A stretch of 32,000 bases of DNA from Geomonas oryzisoli (lineage in GTDB: Bacteria > Desulfobacterota > Desulfuromonadia > Geobacterales > Geobacteraceae): NCBI RefSeq assembly GCF_018986915.1, contig NZ_CP076723.1, positions 3,964,228 through 3,996,227 on the forward strand, written 5' to 3'. Position 1 is the stretch's first letter. Every line of letters starts with the position of its first letter. The translations under genes were made by a program, and so were the position numbers. This document shows, piece by piece, positions 22,558-30,216 of this stretch. The notes under the pieces were generated by a model. The model was not told the DNA's origin. It worked only from the letters and a program-made list of their open reading frames with translations, and made no database searches.

Positions 22558-22632
22558 GCATTCTTTTTTATTAAGTTTTCGACTCCGATGATATATACTC
22601 GTCCGGGTATTTTATGAGGAGCAGGGAGTCGG

Positions 22633-23307
22633 ATGCGCATCCTGATCATCGAAGACGAGCAAAAGGCCGCCAATTACCTGAAGAAGGGGCTCACCGAGAA
22701 CGGCTTCAGCGTCGACATCGCCAACGACGGCGAGGACGGCCTGCACCTGGCCATGACCGAGCAGTACGACCTGATCATCCTCGACGTGATGCTCCCCATC
22801 AAGGGGGGATGGGCCATCATCCAGGAGCTTAGGGAGGCCGGCAAAGAGGTCCCGGTGATCTTTTTGTCCGCGCGGGACTCGGTGCACGACCGGGTGCACG
22901 GCCTGGAGCTGGGGGCGGACGACTACCTGGTGAAACCGTACGCCTTCTCGGAGCTTTTGGCCCGGATCAGGATCATCCTGCGCCGGCACCCCCTGCAGCA
23001 AAGCGAGCTGCTCAAGCTGGCCGACCTGGAGCTGGACCTGGTCCGGCACAAGGCCCGGCGCGGCGGCCAGACCCTCGACCTCACCGTGAAGGAGTTCCAG
23101 CTCCTCGCGCTGATGTTGAGGCGCCGCGGCGAGGTGCTTTCCCGCACCACCATCTCCGAGCAGGTGTGGGGCATCAACTTCGACAGCGACACCAACGTGG
23201 TGGACGTCGCCATCAGGAGATTGAGAAAGAAGGTGGACGATCCCTTTACCCTGAAACTCATCCACACCATCAGGGGGGTCGGCTATGTCATCGACGAAGC
23301 TGCCTGA
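22633..23307 (+). CDS. OmpR-family response regulator of the heavy-metal (CusR/CopR/CzcR-like) subfamily, 224 aa
   Basis: The N-terminus [32 protein letters not shown]......[11 protein letters not shown]...GW is followed by ...[25 protein letters not shown] and a winged-helix C-terminus (...[11 protein letters not shown]). Confidence 0.85.
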
Positions 23308-24724
23308 CCAGCCCAACTCCTTCTCCATCACCGCCCGGCTGGTAGGTTTCTACCTCGTCGCCACCCTCTTGATCCTCCTTTGCACGAACTGGTTCCAATT
23401 CAAGGCCCTCTACAAAGACCTCGACTACGAGGACAACGACTTCCTGGTGGAGCGGATCGGGACGCTGCGGGACATCATCGCCCGCCACCCGGACGCGCTC
23501 AGGGACCAGATCCCGACCAACAAGCCGGGGCAGCCGAACCGGCACCTGGTGCGGGTCCAGGACGCCGAGGGGCGCACCCTGATGCAGTCGCCGGAGATGG
23601 CGGGGCTGGCGGTGGAACTTTTTCCCCCGGCGGTGACCAGTGCCGAGAAGATCAGCCGCGGCCGCAAGTACCGCGCTCCGGACAAGCGGCACTACCTGCT
23701 CAACGCCGCCTGGAGTGAGCGAAACGGCGATCCCCACTACCGGCTGATCCAGGTCGCGCTGGACATAAGCGACGAAGACGCGCTCATGTCCAAGTACCTT
23801 ATCCGGACTGCGGCCTCGGTGGCGACCGGCCTGCTGCTGGCGGCGCTGCTCGGGGTGACCATCACGCGGCGGGGCCTGCGGCCGTTGCAGGAAATGGCGG
23901 AAAAGGTGGCGCATATCACCGAGGCGGACCTGCACCAGCGCATCGGGACGGCGAACTGGCCGCGGGAGCTGACCCAGCTCACCGTGGCGTTGGATGCCAT
24001 GCTGGGGAGGCTCGAGGAATCCTTCGCCCGGCTTTCCGAATTTTCGGCCAACCTCGCCCACGAACTGCGCACTCCGATCAACAACCTGCGCGGCGAGGCC
24101 GAGGTGGCGCTGTCCCGGGCACGGTCGGAGGAGGAGTACCGACACATCATCGAATCCGCCATCGAGGAGTACGAGCGACTCTCCCGCATGGTGGGGGACA
24201 TCCTGTTCCTGGCGCGACCGGACCGCGCCTGCCAGCCGGTGCTGATCGACGCGCGGGCGGAGGTGGAGCGGCTGGCGGATTACTACGGCAACCTGGCCGA
24301 GGAGCAGCAGACCACGATCGTCATCGAAGGGGACGGTGAGGTCAGCGGCGATGCCAACCTGTTCCAGCGCGCCGTAGGCAACCTCATCTCCAACGCCCTG
24401 CATTACGGCTCCCGTTTCGGAGAGATCAGGGTGAAACTCAGCGAAACCGGCGACGGCGGCCTGGAAATCGCCGTGGAGGACGACGGCATGGGTATGGACC
24501 CGACCGAGCTGCCGCGCGTCTTCGACCGTTTCTACCGCTCGCCGCAGGCCCGCCAGATCTACAACCAGGGAAGCGGGCTCGGGCTTGCCATCGTGCGCTC
24601 CATCATGAATCTCCACGGCGGCACGGCCACGGTGGCCAGCCGTCCCGGCGCGGGAACCGTGGTAACCCTGCGTTTTCCGGCACCCCGACAGCGGGACACA
24701 GGAGCATCCGTTGCCGACACATGA
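23285..24724 (+). CDS. Heavy-metal-type sensor histidine kinase (CusS/CopS/CzcS-like; two TM helices, periplasmic loop, HAMP, HisKA, HATPase_c), 479 aa
   Basis: It overlaps the regulator gene by 23 nt. The N-terminus is [20 protein letters not shown]. The H-box is [24 protein letters not shown]. The N and G boxes are NLISNALHY and DDGMGM...[18 protein letters not shown]. Confidence 0.85.
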
Positions 24725-26927
24725 CCTAAAACCTGCGCAGACCGCCTCCACCCCGCGCCCCCCGATCCAGAGCCAGACCGTGCGCATCGTCGGGATCTAC
24801 GCTCTCTTCGGGCTCGCCTGGATCTACGGTTCCGACCACTTCATCGACCTCATCATCGACGACAAGGGGACGCTCCTCAAGATCGCCGTCATCAAGGGGT
24901 TCGTCTTCATCCTCTGCACGGCGACCCTGCTCTACTTCCTCATCAACCGCTTCCTCGGTGAGGTCGCGACGGCGGACCGCGAACGCCTGGAAAGCCTGGA
25001 GAGCCTGAGCCAGAGAAACGCACAGCTGCGCCTGTTCTTCGAGGCGGCGCCCGCGTCCCTGGCCATGTTCGACCGGGACATGCGCTACATCGAGGTGAGC
25101 CGTCGCTGGCTCTCCATGTACGGCCTGGGGGAGCGCGACATCCTGGGGCTGTCGCACTACGAGGTCTTCCCCGAGATCCCCGAGTACTGGAAGGAGTTCC
25201 ACCGTCGCGGCCTGGCCGGCGAGACCATCCGGGAGGAGGCGGACGAATTCCGGCGGGCGGACGGGTCGCTGCAGTACGTCAGGTGGGAGATCCGCCCCTG
25301 GTACCAAAAGCCCGGCGAGATCGGCGGCATCGTCATCTTCACCGAGGACATCACCGAAAGGAAGCAATTCGAGACCGCCCTGAGCGCCAACGAGCGTTTC
25401 CTGCGCCTGTTGACCGACCACCTCCCCGGCCTGGTCGGCTACTGGAAAGAGGACCTGACCTGCGGCTTCGCCAACAGGACCTACTGCGAGTGGTTCGGCA
25501 AGAAAGCGGAGGAGATCATCGGTGTGGGCATGCGCGAGCTCTTGGGAGAGGAGCTCTTCGCCCAGAACGAGCCGCACGTGCGCGCGGTGCTCGCGGGAGA
25601 GCCGCAGCAGTTCCAGCGGACGCTGGTGAAGCGCGACGGCGAGGTTGCCTACGTCTGGTCCCACTACATCCCCGACCTCGTGGACGGCTCCACCCGCGGC
25701 TTTTACGTGCTGGTGTCCGACGTCACCGAGCTGAAACGGGCCGAGGCGGAGAGGCAGCGGCTGGAGCACCAGCTGCAGCAGGCCCAGAAGATGGAGTCGG
25801 TGGGGAGGCTCGCCGGAGGGGTGGCGCACGACTTCAACAACCTGCTCACCGTCATCATGGGGCTGGCCCAGCTGGGGATACGGGAACTGGGGCCGGAACA
25901 CCCGACGCTGGTGCGGCTGGAGGGTATCCGCCAGGCGGCGGAAAAATCCGCGGCTCTCACCAGCCAGCTGCTCGGCTTCGCCCGCAAACAGACCATCGCG
26001 CCCAAGGTCCTTAACCTGAACCGTGCCGTCGAAGAGATGCTGAAGATGCTCAAGCGCCTGGTGGGAGAGGACATCGATCTCGCCTGGAGCCCGGGGAAGG
26101 AGCTGTGGCAGGTGTGCATGGACCCGTCGCAGCTGGACCAGATCCTCGCGAACCTCTGCGTCAACGCGCGCGACGCCATCGCGGACATCGGCAAGATCAC
26201 CATCGAAACCGGCAACGTCTCCTTCGACGCCGAGTACTGCAACGCGCACTTCGACTTCGTCCCGGGCGATTACGTCCTGGTGGCGGTGAGCGACGACGGC
26301 TGCGGGATGGACCAGGAGACCCTGGCGCAGATCTTCGAGCCTTTCTTCTCCACCAAGGAGGTGGGGCGGGGCACGGGGCTGGGGCTCGCCACGGTGTACG
26401 GCATCGTGAAGCAGAACAACGGCTTCATCAACACCTACAGCGAACCGGGAGAAGGGACCACCTTCAAGGTCTACCTGCCGCGGTACACCGAGGAGGGGGC
26501 GCAAGCGGTGCCGGAAACGGCTCCGGCGCCGGCCACCGGCGGCAGCGAGACCATCCTGCTGGTCGAGGACGAGCCGAGCATCCTGAACGTTGCCGTATCG
26601 CTGCTGACCCTTCAGGGTTACCAGGTGCTGCCGGCGTCCAAACCCGAGGACGCGCTGGAATTCGCGCGGCAGTACCGCGACCGCATCGACCTGGTGGTCA
26701 CCGACGTCGTGATGCCGCAGATGAACGGCAGGGACCTGGTGCGCAGGCTGCTCACCTTCTGCCCCAAGGTGAAAAGCCTCTACATGTCCGGCTACACCGC
26801 CAACGTCATCGCCCACCACGGGGTGCTGGACCGGGGGGTGAACTTCATCTCGAAACCCTTCACCATGAACGATCTGGCCGCCAAGGTGCGCGCCGTGCTC
26901 GACGCGAAACCGGAAGAGGTCGCGTAG
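24711..26927 (+). CDS. Membrane-bound hybrid sensor histidine kinase (two TM helices, two PAS domains, HisKA, HATPase_c, C-terminal receiver), 738 aa
   Basis: The TTG start at 24711 has AGGAG 8 nt upstream and overlaps the upstream stop by 14 nt; a GTG near 24779 is an alternative start. PAS-like segments are present (FDRDMRYIEVSRRW..., FANRTYCEWFGK...). The H-box is VAHDFNNLLTVIMG. The ATPase motifs are DDGCGMD...GTGLGLATVYGIV. The receiver is ILLVEDEPSI...DLVVTDVVMPQMNG. Confidence 0.85.
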   Translation: MPTHDLKPAQTASTPRPPIQSQTVRIVGIYALFGLAWIYGSDHFIDLIIDDKGTLLKIAVIKGFVFILCTATLLYFLINRFLGEVATADRERLESLESLSQRNAQLRLFFEAAPASLAMFDRDMRYIEVSRRWLSMYGLGERDILGLSHYEVFPEIPEYWKEFHRRGLAGETIREEADEFRRADGSLQYVRWEIRPWYQKPGEIGGIVIFTEDITERKQFETALSANERFLRLLTDHLPGLVGYWKEDLTCGFANRTYCEWFGKKAEEIIGVGMRELLGEELFAQNEPHVRAVLAGEPQQFQRTLVKRDGEVAYVWSHYIPDLVDGSTRGFYVLVSDVTELKRAEAERQRLEHQLQQAQKMESVGRLAGGVAHDFNNLLTVIMGLAQLGIRELGPEHPTLVRLEGIRQAAEKSAALTSQLLGFARKQTIAPKVLNLNRAVEEMLKMLKRLVGEDIDLAWSPGKELWQVCMDPSQLDQILANLCVNARDAIADIGKITIETGNVSFDAEYCNAHFDFVPGDYVLVAVSDDGCGMDQETLAQIFEPFFSTKEVGRGTGLGLATVYGIVKQNNGFINTYSEPGEGTTFKVYLPRYTEEGAQAVPETAPAPATGGSETILLVEDEPSILNVAVSLLTLQGYQVLPASKPEDALEFARQYRDRIDLVVTDVVMPQMNGRDLVRRLLTFCPKVKSLYMSGYTANVIAHHGVLDRGVNFISKPFTMNDLAAKVRAVLDAKPEEVA

Positions 26928-26931
26928 CTAC

Positions 26932-26947
26932 ATGACAGAAATGTCAT
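26932..26947. promoter_or_regulatory. Perfect inverted repeat ATGACA-GAAA-TGTCAT, matching the CusR/CopR/HprR-type box half-sites and spacing
   Basis: ATGACA is at 26932-26937, GAAA at 26938-26941 and TGTCAT at 26942-26947. It starts 5 nt after the hybrid kinase stop and about 34 nt upstream of a TATTAT -10-like hexamer. The E. coli CusR box is ATGACAA-NN-TTGTCAT, which is ATGACA-N4-TGTCAT. Confidence 0.55.
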
Positions 26948-26980
26948 CTGACTGCAATGCAACGGCAAGGAGCGCTACCG

Positions 26981-26986
26981 TATTAT
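26981..26986 (+). promoter_or_regulatory. -10-like hexamer TATTAT with a weak -35 (activator-dependent look) upstream of the LtaS-family gene
   Basis: TATTAT lies at 26981-26986. The best -35 at 17-nt spacing is TGCAAC, which is a poor match. ATG 27026 is 40 nt downstream. Confidence 0.35.
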
Positions 26987-27025
26987 AGGCGGTATTTTTG
27001 TGTCACTAATTCAAGAGGTTTGTCT

Positions 27026-28927
27026 ATGCAGCAACGCCGACTGGGGCTGGTCGCCTTCGTCTCCCTCACATTTCTCGCTGTTTCCACCGCCATCCGCATC
27101 ATGCTGGCAGCCGCCACCCCGAAGGGGGCCGGCCTCAAACTCTCGCTGCTGCTCAAAGCGGCAGCCGCAGGCCTGTATTTCGACCTGGCTACCTTGGCCT
27201 ACGCCATCGTGCCGCTGGCGCTGTACCTGATCCTGATCCCGCGTCGGGCGGCGACGCACCGCCGGCACATCTGGCTGGTGCGCCTTTTCTTCGCCCTGTT
27301 CGTGGGCGTGCTGGTCTTCGACGTCTGCGCCGAGTACATCTTCTTCGACGAGTTCGGCACCCGCTTCAACTTCATCGCCATCGACTACCTGGTCTATACC
27401 CAGGAAGTGGTCGGCAACATCCGGGAGTCCTACCCGCTCAGCGTGATCTTCTCCGGCATCGGAGCCGTGGCGGCGGCCGTCTGCTGGGTCCTGAGAAAGC
27501 CGCTGACCCGCGGGGCGGAAGCGACCTTCAACGGTGCCTACCACCGCACCGGTTTCCTGCTCCTGCTGCCGGTCGTCCTCTCCTACGGCGTGGTCAACAT
27601 CTCCCAGTCGGCCATCTCCAAGAACAACTACGCCAACGAGATCGCGGGCAACGGGGTCTACAACCTGTTCGCCGCCTTCATCAACAACGAGCTTCCCTTC
27701 ACCAGGTTCTACCGGACCCTGCCGCAGAACCAGGTGAACGCGCGCCTGAGGACCCTGGTCGCGGAGCGCAACAACAGCTTCGTCGATCCCAAATCCGAGC
27801 GTTTCACCCGCAGCATCCGCGCCGAGGGGCCGGAGAAGCGCCTGAACCTGGTGGTGGTGGTCGAGGAGAGCCTGTCGGCCGAGTACCTGGGAACGTTCGG
27901 CAACACCAAGGGGCTCACCCCGAACCTGGACCGCCTGGCATCGCAGTCGCTTCTGTTCACCAACCTCTACGCCAACGGCACCCGCACCGTGCGCGGCCTG
28001 GAGGCGCTCACCCTCTCCGTCCCGCCGCTGCCGGGCACCTCGATCGTGAAGCGTCCCAACAACGGCGGCTTCCGTTCCTGGGGCGAGATCATGAACGCCA
28101 AGGGGTACCAGTCGAAGTACATCTACGCCGGGCACGGCTACTTCGACAACATGAACGCCTTCTTCTCGAGTAACGGCTACTCCATCGTGGACCGCACCGA
28201 CTTCGCCAAGGACGAGATCTCCTTCGCGAACGTCTGGGGGGTGTGCGACGAGGACCTTTTCCGCAAGGTGATCAAGGAGGGGACCAAGTCCTACGAAGCC
28301 GGCAAGCCCTTCTTCTCCATGGTGATGACCACCTCCAACCACCGTCCCTTCACCTATCCGGCGGGCAGGATCGACATCCCGGCCAAAAAGGGGCGTAACG
28401 GCGGGGTGAAATACGCCGACTACGCCATCGGCAGGCTGATCGCCGAGGCGAGCAGCAAGCCCTGGTTCAAGGACACCATTTTCGTCATCGTCGCCGACCA
28501 CTGCGCCGGCAGCGCCGGCAAGACCGACATCCCCATCAAGAAGTACGAGATCCCGCTTTTGGTGTACTCACCGGCGCACATCAAACCGGCTCGGGTGGAG
28601 AAGCTGATGAGCCAGATCGACGTCGCCCCCACCGTGCTCGGCCTGATGAACATGAGCTACCAGAGCGACTTCCTGGGACGCGACATCTTCAAGGACTCCG
28701 GCCAGCCCGGGCGCGCCTTCATCTCGACCTACCAGAAGCTGGGCTTTTTGACCGACAACGAGCTGCTGGTGCTTGGGCCGAGGCAGTATTCGGCGCAGTA
28801 CAAGGTGAACCGCAAGACCGGCGACGCCAAGAGCGAGCCGGTGACCGACGCCATGCTGGGCGACATGCTCGCGTACTACCAGGGGGCGGACTACCTGTAC
28901 CAGCACAGGCTGAACCGGATCCGCTAG
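27026..28927 (+). CDS. LTA-synthase / phosphoglycerol-transferase-like membrane sulfatase-family enzyme (alkaline-phosphatase superfamily), 633 aa
   Basis: I prefer ATG 27026 (MQQRRLGLVAFVSLTFLAV...) to the track start at 26957. There are about five N-terminal TM helices. The extracytoplasmic sulfatase domain reads NLVVVVEESLSAEYLGTFGN...TPNLDRLASQSLLFTNLYANGTRTVRGLEA...SNHRPFTYP...IVADHCAG. Confidence 0.8.
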   Translation: MQQRRLGLVAFVSLTFLAVSTAIRIMLAAATPKGAGLKLSLLLKAAAAGLYFDLATLAYAIVPLALYLILIPRRAATHRRHIWLVRLFFALFVGVLVFDVCAEYIFFDEFGTRFNFIAIDYLVYTQEVVGNIRESYPLSVIFSGIGAVAAAVCWVLRKPLTRGAEATFNGAYHRTGFLLLLPVVLSYGVVNISQSAISKNNYANEIAGNGVYNLFAAFINNELPFTRFYRTLPQNQVNARLRTLVAERNNSFVDPKSERFTRSIRAEGPEKRLNLVVVVEESLSAEYLGTFGNTKGLTPNLDRLASQSLLFTNLYANGTRTVRGLEALTLSVPPLPGTSIVKRPNNGGFRSWGEIMNAKGYQSKYIYAGHGYFDNMNAFFSSNGYSIVDRTDFAKDEISFANVWGVCDEDLFRKVIKEGTKSYEAGKPFFSMVMTTSNHRPFTYPAGRIDIPAKKGRNGGVKYADYAIGRLIAEASSKPWFKDTIFVIVADHCAGSAGKTDIPIKKYEIPLLVYSPAHIKPARVEKLMSQIDVAPTVLGLMNMSYQSDFLGRDIFKDSGQPGRAFISTYQKLGFLTDNELLVLGPRQYSAQYKVNRKTGDAKSEPVTDAMLGDMLAYYQGADYLYQHRLNRIR

Positions 28928-28967
28928 AGCCGGGACGGAACAGGCGGGAGATACCCGCGACAACGAC

Positions 28968-29004
28968 AAACGGGACGCAGCCTGATGAAGGCGCGTCCCG
29001 TTTT
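28968..29004. terminator. Bidirectional rho-independent terminator between convergent genes
   Basis: AAA-CGGGACGC-agcctgatgaaggc-GCGTCCCG-TTTT forms an 8-bp GC-rich stem flanked by an A-run and a T-run. It serves the plus-strand sulfatase-family gene and the minus-strand azlD. Confidence 0.75.
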
Positions 29005-29060
29005 CCTTTTCTCCTGTTCCGTTTCCGCTCGCCCCTGCTTGCGGCAGAGTATCGGCTCGG

Positions 29061-29372
29061 TCATAGCCCCATCTTGCGCACGGCGAAGATGACCAGCATG
29101 CCGCAGAGCATGGCGGCGAGGGTGTTGCGGGTGCGTAACACGACGATGGCGGTAAGCGCGGCGGCCATGAGTCCCCAGACGCCTTCGGCGACGATGGACG
29201 GCACCACGAGCGAGAACAACAGGGCCCCGGGCAGGGCATCCATGGCACGGCGGAAGCGACCGGAACGCGGGAAACGGGAGGCCAACAGCAACCCGCCCAG
29301 CCGCAAGGAGTAGGTCACCGCGGCGGCCAGTCCCACGGCGATCAGTACTTGAGGCTCAATAGCCGGCAGCAT
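29061..29372 (-). CDS. azlD: AzlD-family branched-chain amino acid transport protein, 103 aa
   Basis: ATG 29372 (MLPAIEPQVLIAVGLAAAVTYSLRLGG...) overlaps the azlC stop by 17 nt. The protein is small, hydrophobic and has four TM helices. The track's 190-aa version (to 29633) is an off-frame N-terminal extension inside azlC. Confidence 0.75.
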   Translation of the reverse strand: MLPAIEPQVLIAVGLAAAVTYSLRLGGLLLASRFPRSGRFRRAMDALPGALLFSLVVPSIVAEGVWGLMAAALTAIVVLRTRNTLAAMLCGMLVIFAVRKMGL

Positions 29373-30084
29373 CTTCCACCTCCTCCACCTTCTCCACTTC
29401 GTCCGACTCGCATGGCCCGACCATGGCGCTGATGGCGCCGGCCAGTCCTCCCGCGACGATGTACCACTTGCCCGGCAGGAACTTGTGGGCCAACAAAGCG
29501 GCTGCCCCGGCGACGAACCACGGGAGGACGTCGCCCTTGCCGCGCCACAGCCCGACGGCCAGCGCCGTGAAGACCGCGGTGAAGGCGAAATCGAGGGCGT
29601 ACTCTTCGGGCCTGGTGATGAAGCCGCCGCCAAGAAGACCGATCAGCGTGCCACTGCTCCAGGCGAGATAGAGGAAGACGCCGCCGCCGAAGAGAAACCA
29701 GGTGGTGGCGCTGCCGTTGCGCTGCTCGGACATGGTGACGGCCCAGTTCTCGTCGGCCACCAGGTGCATCATGCCCATCTTGTGCAGCAGGCTCCGTCCG
29801 GAGAAGAGCGGGTCCAGGGAGGCGCCGATCAGCAGGTAACGCAGGTTGATCACCAGGACGGCCAGCGTCATCTCGAAGATGGGCATATGGTTCGACCACA
29901 TGTCGACCATGACGAATTGGGCCGCACCGGCGAAAACGGCGCTGTTCATGTACATCATGTCGAGCCAGCTCAACCCCTTTTGCGCGGCGAGCACGCCCAG
30001 CACGCTGCCATAGGCCATGGCGCTGGCGGCCACCGGCACGTTGGCCCTGGCCCCCCTGATCATCTCGGGCTTTCTGTGTTTCAT
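29356..30084 (-). CDS. azlC: AzlC-family branched-chain amino acid permease/exporter subunit, 242 aa
   Basis: ATG 30084 follows AAGGTGA. The sequence is typical of AzlC: ...PVAASAMAYGSVLGVLAAQKGLSWLDMMYMNSAVFAGAAQFVMV...LVINLRYLLIGASL.... Confidence 0.8.
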   Translation of the reverse strand: MKHRKPEMIRGARANVPVAASAMAYGSVLGVLAAQKGLSWLDMMYMNSAVFAGAAQFVMVDMWSNHMPIFEMTLAVLVINLRYLLIGASLDPLFSGRSLLHKMGMMHLVADENWAVTMSEQRNGSATTWFLFGGGVFLYLAWSSGTLIGLLGGGFITRPEEYALDFAFTAVFTALAVGLWRGKGDVLPWFVAGAAALLAHKFLPGKWYIVAGGLAGAISAMVGPCESDEVEKVEEVEDAAGY

Positions 30085-30216
30085 ACATTCACCTTGGTGT
30101 TGGCTGCCATGCAATTTGTTCGTCCGGAGTCACAGCCTACTACTTAAGGACTGGTGGGGAAAAGATACAGATGGCGGTAAAAAAAGGGCGGTATTGTGTG
30201 CGGCAGCTCGCGTCGG

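Follow-up and report, generated by a model that had tools for sequence, protein, structure and literature searches.

To our knowledge, regulons for the remodelling of lipid A have been described almost only in enteric and pseudomonad pathogens, where they are governed by PmrAB, PhoPQ, ColRS and related systems. PmrAB (BasRS), with its targets arnBCADTEF and eptA/pmrC, and ColRS of Pseudomonas, another metal-responsive regulator of lipid A, link a periplasmic sensor to the 4-amino-4-deoxy-L-arabinose (L-Ara4N) pathway and to a membrane transferase of the alkaline-phosphatase superfamily. In Escherichia coli, by comparison, CusRS, to which HprRS and PcoRS are related, serves efflux, chaperone or oxidase genes through the CusR box AAAATGACAAnnTTGTCATTTT (PMC11195947), which can also be read directly in the MG1655 sequence. 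Here we describe a locus in 32,000 nt of Geomonas oryzisoli DNA (the window, G000:C1:3964228-3996227, from a complete genome of 4.85 Mb and 61.8% G+C), in which a CusR-type box lies between an operon encoding a CusRS-like pair and a hybrid kinase and the gene of an LtaS/OpgB-like membrane transferase. The box is real and conserved, and very probably serves the adjacent CusR-family system as its operator for the activation of a regulon that remodels the envelope.

The Geomonas system shares with E. coli CusRS, HprRS and PcoRS the regulator and kinase subfamilies, the half-sites, the 4-nt spacer and the promoter layout as read in MG1655. It differs from CusRS in its targets, which are envelope-modifying genes rather than efflux, chaperone or oxidase genes, in a kinase with neither the Cu(I) site (His-Phe...His) nor the Met/His loop of CusS, and in an extra hybrid kinase gene that is coupled to the operon. 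Moreover, unlike the autoregulated systems of E. coli and Pseudomonas, it has neither a divergent autoregulated promoter nor a box before the regulator operon. With PmrAB and ColRS it appears to share a periplasmic sensor and the same two kinds of output, the L-Ara4N pathway and a transferase of the alkaline-phosphatase superfamily. This likeness is functional and derives from the targets: the regulator scores 181.9 bits with the PmrA equivalog NF007928, whose cut-off is 330, and so is no orthologue of PmrA, and its operator is a CusR-type inverted repeat, in contrast to the direct repeat of PmrA. Our literature search returned no paper linking a CusR-family system to arn genes or LtaS-like genes, and no relevant one on Geobacter and CusR.

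A conserved box and its promoter geometry

The 16-mer ATGACAGAAATGTCAT at 26932-26947 reads ATGACA-GAAA-TGTCAT, the perfect 6+4+6 palindrome that the initial annotation had pointed out, and comparison with the published box (PMC11195947) and with MG1655 bears out its statement that half-sites and spacing are those of the E. coli CusR box. Its first base comes 5 nt past the TAG stop codon (26925-26927) that closes the hybrid kinase gene, and 78 nt separate its end from the LtaS-like ATG at 27026. The half-sites fit ATGACA(A)-N-(T)TGTCAT with a 10-bp centre-to-centre distance and stand upstream of what appears to be an activator-dependent type of promoter, as expected of a CusR-type operator. 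The features of the locus are as follows:

22633-23307, plus strand: OmpR-family response regulator of the CusR/CopR/CzcR subfamily, the proposed binder of the box (TIGR01387; Response_reg, Trans_reg_C)
23285-24724, plus strand: CusS/CopS-family membrane sensor histidine kinase (TIGR01386; HAMP, HisKA, HATPase_c)
24711-26927, plus strand: PAS-PAS hybrid histidine kinase with a receiver (Pfam PAS_4, PAS_9, HisKA, HATPase_c, Response_reg)
26932-26947, no strand assigned: CusR-type inverted repeat ATGACA-N4-TGTCAT, half-sites 1 and 2, recognised by sequence, rarity and conservation
26953-26958, plus strand: third half-site TGCAAT, 5 nt past the 16-mer, repeating half-site 2 in direct orientation (phasing 11 bp) and abutting the -35
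26981-26986, plus strand: predicted -10 hexamer TATTAT, 33 nt past the 16-mer, with a putative start about 7 nt after the hexamer
27013-27018, plus strand: ribosome-binding site AAGAGG, 7 nt before the ATG, from a reading of the sequence
27026-28927, plus strand: LtaS/OpgB-like membrane transferase of 633 aa, of an uncharacterised subfamily (Pfam Sulfatase)
28971-29010, plus strand: likely intrinsic terminator, with an 8-bp stem rich in G+C and then a TTTTCCTTTT tract, again from a reading of the sequence

None of 100 shuffles of the window that preserved its dinucleotides contained a perfect match to ATGACANNNNTGTCAT. The whole genome holds two perfect boxes and no match to a reversed control pattern, against an expectation, which we estimated from base composition, of about 0.1 perfect copies per genome. 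The looser pattern with up to two mismatches is not significant alone, with a mean of 0.41 matches per shuffle and at least one match in 34 of the 100 shuffles.

Conservation of the box was evident upstream of LtaS-like orthologues. It is found at −92 to −99 in all nine same-genus genomes (79-95% protein identity) and in eight of ten genomes of a Geobacter-like genus (61-65%), and at −76 to −101 when the two genera and several metagenome-assembled genomes (MAGs) are counted together; in both genera the intergenic flanks diverge while the box stays. The third half-site and a TAnnnT hexamer at +33 are kept as well, the latter in nearly all of the box-bearing promoters examined and the former as an invariant TGCAAT in the same-genus LtaS promoters and as CGTCAT or TGTCAT in the Geobacter-like genus. 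Directly 5′ of the box lies the hybrid kinase gene in the same-genus genomes and the CusS-like kinase gene in the Geobacter-like genus, and the two of ten Geobacter-like genomes that have no kinase upstream also have no box. Similar results were obtained with a wider sample of 79 LtaS-like loci, on contigs taken from one genome per species. All 16 loci that have the orthologous regulator (78% identity or more) and the orthologous kinase immediately upstream show the box, with no more than one mismatch, and loci without the pair lack it, including orthologues of 60-73% identity (L108-L111, L113) and more distant ones; the sole exception is a 3.3-kb Trichlorobacter contig on which the upstream context is cut off. 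Since these genomes are related, we treat the co-occurrence as a pattern, not as a statistical test.

In other Geobacteraceae genera, LtaS-like orthologues of about 55% identity (L039-L045) have no CusR-type box. Their upstream regions have another conserved motif in common, around AATAATCTGTACTTT or GAATAGTCTGGACTTTCCC, and the same enzyme may thus be under a different regulator there.

The promoter behind the box is of the activator type with a poor -35, as the initial annotation had held: TGCAAC stands at the -35 position and matches TTGACA at two of six bases. The TATTAT hexamer that it had named is also present, although 33 nt from the box and not about 34. The operator can be written as three half-sites, ATGACA-N4-TGTCAT-N5-TGCAAT, and if transcription starts about 7 nt after TATTAT, the palindrome would be centred near −53.5 with the third half-site abutting the -35. 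We searched the genome for this geometry by taking all 16-mers with up to two mismatches (198 strand-wise matches, that is 99 sites) and asking for a third half-site 5 nt downstream and for TAnnnT 32-34 nt downstream. Just three of the 99 sites have the full geometry, each oriented toward the gene behind it, and in all three the hexamer begins exactly 33 nt past the 16-mer, in the common layout of 16-mer, 5 nt, third half-site, 22 nt and TAnnnT:

arnT promoter: third half-site TGTCAT, hexamer TACTAT
LtaS-like promoter: third half-site TGCAAT, hexamer TATTAT
promoter of a DUF4337 membrane-protein gene: box with one mismatch, third half-site TGTCAC, hexamer TAAAAT

The cusC promoter of E. coli MG1655 (L176:3513-3567) consists of ATGACAATTTTGTCAT, 5 nt, TGTCAC, 22 nt and TAAAGT toward cusC, and its layout equals that of the Geomonas promoters to the base in spacing. 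The papers on the CusR box that we consulted (e.g. PMC11195947) give the palindrome only, without a third half-site. A terminator-like hairpin that our scanner placed at 26976-26994 was discarded as a terminator, since it runs into the predicted -10 and other Geomonas genomes do not keep its pairing.

The arnT operon and other boxes in the genome

The initial annotation had proposed a genome-wide scan for the box. When this was run, the sole other perfect copy, ATGACAATGTTGTCAT at G000:1662368, proved to lie about 105 nt upstream of an ArnT-like gene and to head an arnT / L-Ara4N operon. Five adjacent genes on one strand encode an ArnT-like glycosyltransferase of the GT-C type, a UDP-4-keto-pentose synthase, an ArnB-like aminotransferase, an ArnC-like family 2 glycosyltransferase (GT2) and a formyltransferase, so that all five gene types of the Arn pathway are predicted side by side, the formyltransferase and decarboxylase halves of ArnA included. 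The UDP-4-keto-pentose synthase (NF008872) and the formyltransferase (NF005414) pass the NCBIfam equivalog cut-offs; for the other three genes ArnT, ArnB and ArnC are the best-scoring families, at scores below their equivalog cut-offs. Judged by these family assignments, the operon is the L-Ara4N lipid A pathway. The arnT box is kept in all seven Geomonas orthologues, with 0-2 mismatches in the operator; outside Geomonas, where a different gene precedes arnT, the box is missing.

No box with up to two mismatches was found within 8 kb of the genome's two heavy-metal efflux pumps of the resistance-nodulation-division type (HME-RND) or of its two copper P-type ATPases, the closest of which is about 0.8 Mb from the box locus. 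A connection of the box with metal efflux was rejected on this ground, in agreement with the earlier observation that the window holds no cusCFBA, copA or czc efflux genes. The arrangement of a CusRS/CopRS copper-resistance regulon, with boxes at efflux, chaperone or oxidase genes and at the system's own operon, is absent here. The earlier proposal that a heavy-metal-family system has been rewired to envelope modification is thus upheld and extended, with the arnT box as its strongest support; a glucan as acceptor is unlikely in a genome without a detectable OpgG.

Several further boxes were noted. Two other Geomonas genomes, in which arnT has no match at E ≤ 1e-60, carry a perfect box elsewhere (L053:1501-1516, L060:1501-1516), in a divergent region before a GT2 - LAB_N - GT-C (ArnT-like) operon and opposite a citrate-lyase-ligase-like gene; these boxes have neither a third half-site nor the 33-nt geometry. 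The own-genome copy of that operon (L194:3093-5787) has no box, the best match having four mismatches. We take this operon to be an Lgm-like lipid A glycosylation operon. A box with one mismatch, CTGACAGGATTGTCAT (G000:C1:936064-936079; L063:4064-4079), is located at the 5′ end of an M48 peptidase open reading frame (ORF) and faces an unannotated 225-aa gene; as it has neither the third half-site nor the 33-nt geometry, it may be a chance match.

The regulator, its kinases and the LtaS-like transferase

The position of the box behind a CusR/CusS-like pair and a hybrid kinase, as initially described, was corroborated by family models. The regulator scored 344.6 bits against TIGR01387 (cztR_silR_copR; cut-off 279.2) and the kinase 390.4 bits against TIGR01386 (cztS_silS_copS; cut-off 292.55) over model positions 2-457. 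A genome search with TIGR01387 returned three CusR-like regulators, of which that encoded at 22633-23307 is the best (344.1 bits). It has 55% identity to E. coli CusR, with a nearly identical recognition-helix region, and its DNA-binding domain matches PcoR (2JZY) with E = 3e-31. The two paralogous regulators show several differences in the recognition helix from both CusR and the adjacent regulator, and none of the three CusR-like systems adjoins efflux genes. One of them belongs to a second CusRS-like pair (L065:4991-7187, at 3.78 Mb in G000), which adjoins a gene for a B12-binding radical SAM protein and not an efflux operon, and whose regulator has a different recognition helix. The third regulator (L066:4987-7196, at 4.12 Mb) reached 267.7 bits, just below the TIGR01387 cut-off; it has no adjacent kinase and is followed on the same strand by the gene of an HtrA/DegP-type protease, which suggests a pairing with envelope stress.

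PmrB binds Fe(III) through ExxE motifs, and PmrB and PhoQ offer an analogy for acidic sensor residues. The Cu(I) site of the CusRS-type kinases is built differently, from His42, Phe43 and His176 in CusS and from His41, Phe42 and His140 in CopS, at the dimer interface; CusS has a specific Met/His loop besides this conserved site (PMC12589874, PMC7763554). When the adjacent kinase and seven orthologues were aligned to E. coli CusS, the positions of His42, Phe43 and His176 were occupied by Asp, Leu and Glu, and the loop that carries CusS Met133, Met135 and His145 was deleted. Just past the first transmembrane helix these kinases have a conserved acidic stretch, DLDYEDNDF. The His-Phe...His signature of a Cu(I)/Ag(I)-sensing kinase is thus missing from this alignment, whose low identity in the periplasmic domain makes the ligand substitution suggestive, not proven. 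Because the CusS ligands appear to be replaced by Asp and Glu beside a conserved acidic patch, Cu(I) and Ag(I) are improbable as the signal, and copper and silver, which the initial annotation had named as inducers to test, are unlikely to act on this kinase. By analogy with PmrB and PhoQ, our best guess is a hard cation (Fe, Al) or cationic envelope stress. The paralogous kinase at 3.78 Mb retains His at both CusS interface positions, and may therefore be the genome's real periplasmic copper sensor.

The hybrid kinase gene is found 5′ of the box in all nine same-genus genomes (the Geomonas/Citrifermentans lineage) and is absent from the Geobacter-like genus and from several MAG lineages, where the order is regulator, kinase, box and LtaS-like gene. 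This distribution suggests a lineage-specific insertion into an older cassette.

The gene behind the box had been described as LtaS/phosphoglycerol-transferase-like, and the description fits: the protein has a Sulfatase domain (Pfam, E = 8e-44), five N-terminal membrane helices predicted by hydropathy and then an extracytoplasmic alkaline-phosphatase-superfamily domain, and its best named matches, both weak, are phosphoglycerol transferase I and LtaS. The start at 27026 agrees with the orthologues, whose alignments begin at the first residue. The helices and the Sulfatase fold are shared with LtaS and LtaP of Gram-positive bacteria and with OpgB (MdoB) of E. coli, but the scores are far below the family cut-offs, at 50.1 bits against 970 for NF053595 (LtaS), 83.5 against 572 for NF009027 (OpgB) and 47.6 against 574 for NF003000, and the host is a diderm without teichoic acids. 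The nearest solved structure is 3LXQ (VP1736, uncharacterised; E = 1.6e-74), on which our literature search found nothing relevant; LtaP and LtaS structures match at 1e-12 to 1e-7. OpgG had no match in this genome (99.99% complete), which makes an OpgB-like role on periplasmic glucans unlikely. An identity of the EptA/MCR type was rejected because the protein, unlike EptA, has no N-terminal EptA_B_N domain (PF08019); this domain had no match anywhere in the genome, and the protein shows the Sulfatase domain only.

A loop of more than 8 nt kept the hairpin at 28971-29010 off the consensus list of our terminator scanner. Beyond it, the first real gene is a convergent AzlC-family gene (29356-30114, minus strand), and together with the terminator-like hairpin it suggests that the LtaS-like gene forms a single-gene unit. 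An ORF of 226 aa at 28568-29248 on the minus strand was considered as a conserved neighbour and rejected as an antisense shadow of the LtaS-like 3′ end; its conservation is due to that of the overlapping gene. The Geobacter-like genomes have the CusS-like kinase, then the box, then the LtaS-like gene, and only a few bases lie between the LtaS-like stop codon and the start of a PAP2 phosphatase gene (L031:3396-4256). One Geomonas/Citrifermentans genome has a 99-aa N-terminal PAP2 remnant after the LtaS-like gene (L028:3403-3702). In the genome under study no homologue of this PAP2 partner was found, and its place behind the LtaS-like gene is empty. The PAP2 and LtaS-like pair recalls phosphatase-transferase pairs that act on lipid A. 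Since no osmoregulated periplasmic glucan pathway was found and a PAP2 partner occurs in Geobacter, the context favours an acceptor in lipopolysaccharide (LPS) or lipid A, to which the enzyme may add a phospho-alcohol such as phosphoglycerol.

A proposed regulon and its alternatives

Based on these comparisons, we propose that the membrane kinase (23285-24724) would phosphorylate the regulator (22633-23307), which would then bind the three-half-site operator, the third half-site abutting the weak -35. Binding would activate the sigma-70-type promoter (-10 TATTAT, 26981-26986) of the single-gene LtaS-like unit, and the same regulator would also activate the arnT / L-Ara4N operon and the DUF4337 gene via operators of identical geometry. 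With such envelope targets, the system would be a functional analogue of PmrAB on a CusRS-family chassis. We consider it likely that the box belongs to a three-half-site operator for the adjacent CusR-family regulator, and that this regulator activates the LtaS-like, arnT and DUF4337 genes and serves to re-dress the outer membrane, not to export metal. Five points weigh against this proposal. No box occurs in the 75-nt region before the regulator gene (22558-22632), so that an autoregulatory box there was rejected; the complete operator precedes DUF4337 in just three of nine Geomonas genomes, which makes this gene a variable member of the regulon; the substitutions at the CusS ligand positions carry the alignment risk of a low-identity periplasmic domain; the TAAAGT of cusC is our own sequence reading and not a mapped start; and the two further CusR-like regulators of the genome might also bind the box.

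The last point could be taken further. If the box were bound mainly by another CusR-like regulator, such as that of the 3.78 Mb pair, copper would control the envelope genes and the adjacency would be incidental or a matter of cross-regulation. The genome does hold three TIGR01387-like regulators, the kinase of the 3.78 Mb pair keeps its interface histidines, and the sharing of boxes within the CusR family is documented for CusR and HprR in E. coli and for CusR, CopR and CzcR in Pseudomonas (PMC10920338, PMC11195947). The recognition helices of the paralogues nevertheless differ at several positions from those of CusR and the adjacent regulator, and the box before the LtaS-like gene tracks the adjacent pair across the 79 loci and two genera, which renders this explanation unlikely. 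It is also conceivable that the adjacent regulator, once bound to the box, works as a repressor at the LtaS-like and arnT promoters or forms a roadblock against transcription that reads through from the kinase operon. There is no terminator between the hybrid kinase gene and the box, so that read-through is possible, and Pseudomonas CopR can repress by occupying a shared palindrome (PMC11195947). Against repression stands the location of the operator upstream of a -10 with a poor -35, at a spacing identical to that of the CusR-activated cusC of E. coli; against a roadblock, the same geometry occurs at arnT and DUF4337, which have no upstream co-directional operon to block. We regard this possibility as rather improbable.

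A last explanation does without a regulatory protein: the match would be due to chance, or the palindrome would act in RNA, as a hairpin or terminator at the 3′ terminus of the kinase operon. This seems hardly credible. The palindrome does lie directly behind a stop codon, and its arms could pair over 6 bp around a loop of 4 nt, but the stem is A+T-rich and no T-tract follows it, and between 26915 and 27030 the RNA fold does not surpass that of shuffled sequences (z = 0.48), on which grounds the hairpin reading was rejected. Chance is excluded by conservation, as two genera keep the sequence itself and not pairing alone. The perfect match is also missing from all 100 shuffles, and unlinked promoters carry this 16-mer again in an identical geometry.

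Activation of envelope genes by the adjacent regulator, our preferred reading, permits a wider and much more tentative proposal. Via the change to Asp-Leu...Glu, a Geobacteraceae branch of CusRS may have given up the sensing of the soft metal Cu(I) for that of hard cations or of stress on the envelope, and may govern lipid A charge through L-Ara4N and through an undescribed phospho-transfer of the LtaS-like type. It would then be an independently evolved counterpart of PmrAB that couples surroundings rich in Fe(III)/Fe(II) to outer-membrane chemistry, and the CusR operator would consist of three half-sites in E. coli too.

The locus offers a well-defined and testable case of a lipid A-type regulon in environmental metal-reducing bacteria, in which an output of L-Ara4N and phospho-transfer would be wired to a family annotated as copper/silver resistance. 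"Heavy metal sensor" annotations in Geobacteraceae can therefore mislead as to both signal and output. The uncharacterised LtaS-like enzymes of the VP1736 type gain a regulatory context, and the acidic replacement of the CusS copper site provides a concrete hypothesis for a change of specificity within one family. The three-half-site geometry, which is common to E. coli cusC, suggests that the textbook CusR box is incomplete. Finally, as surface charge affects the contact of Geobacteraceae with Fe(III) oxides and electrodes, a switch of that charge would be of practical interest.

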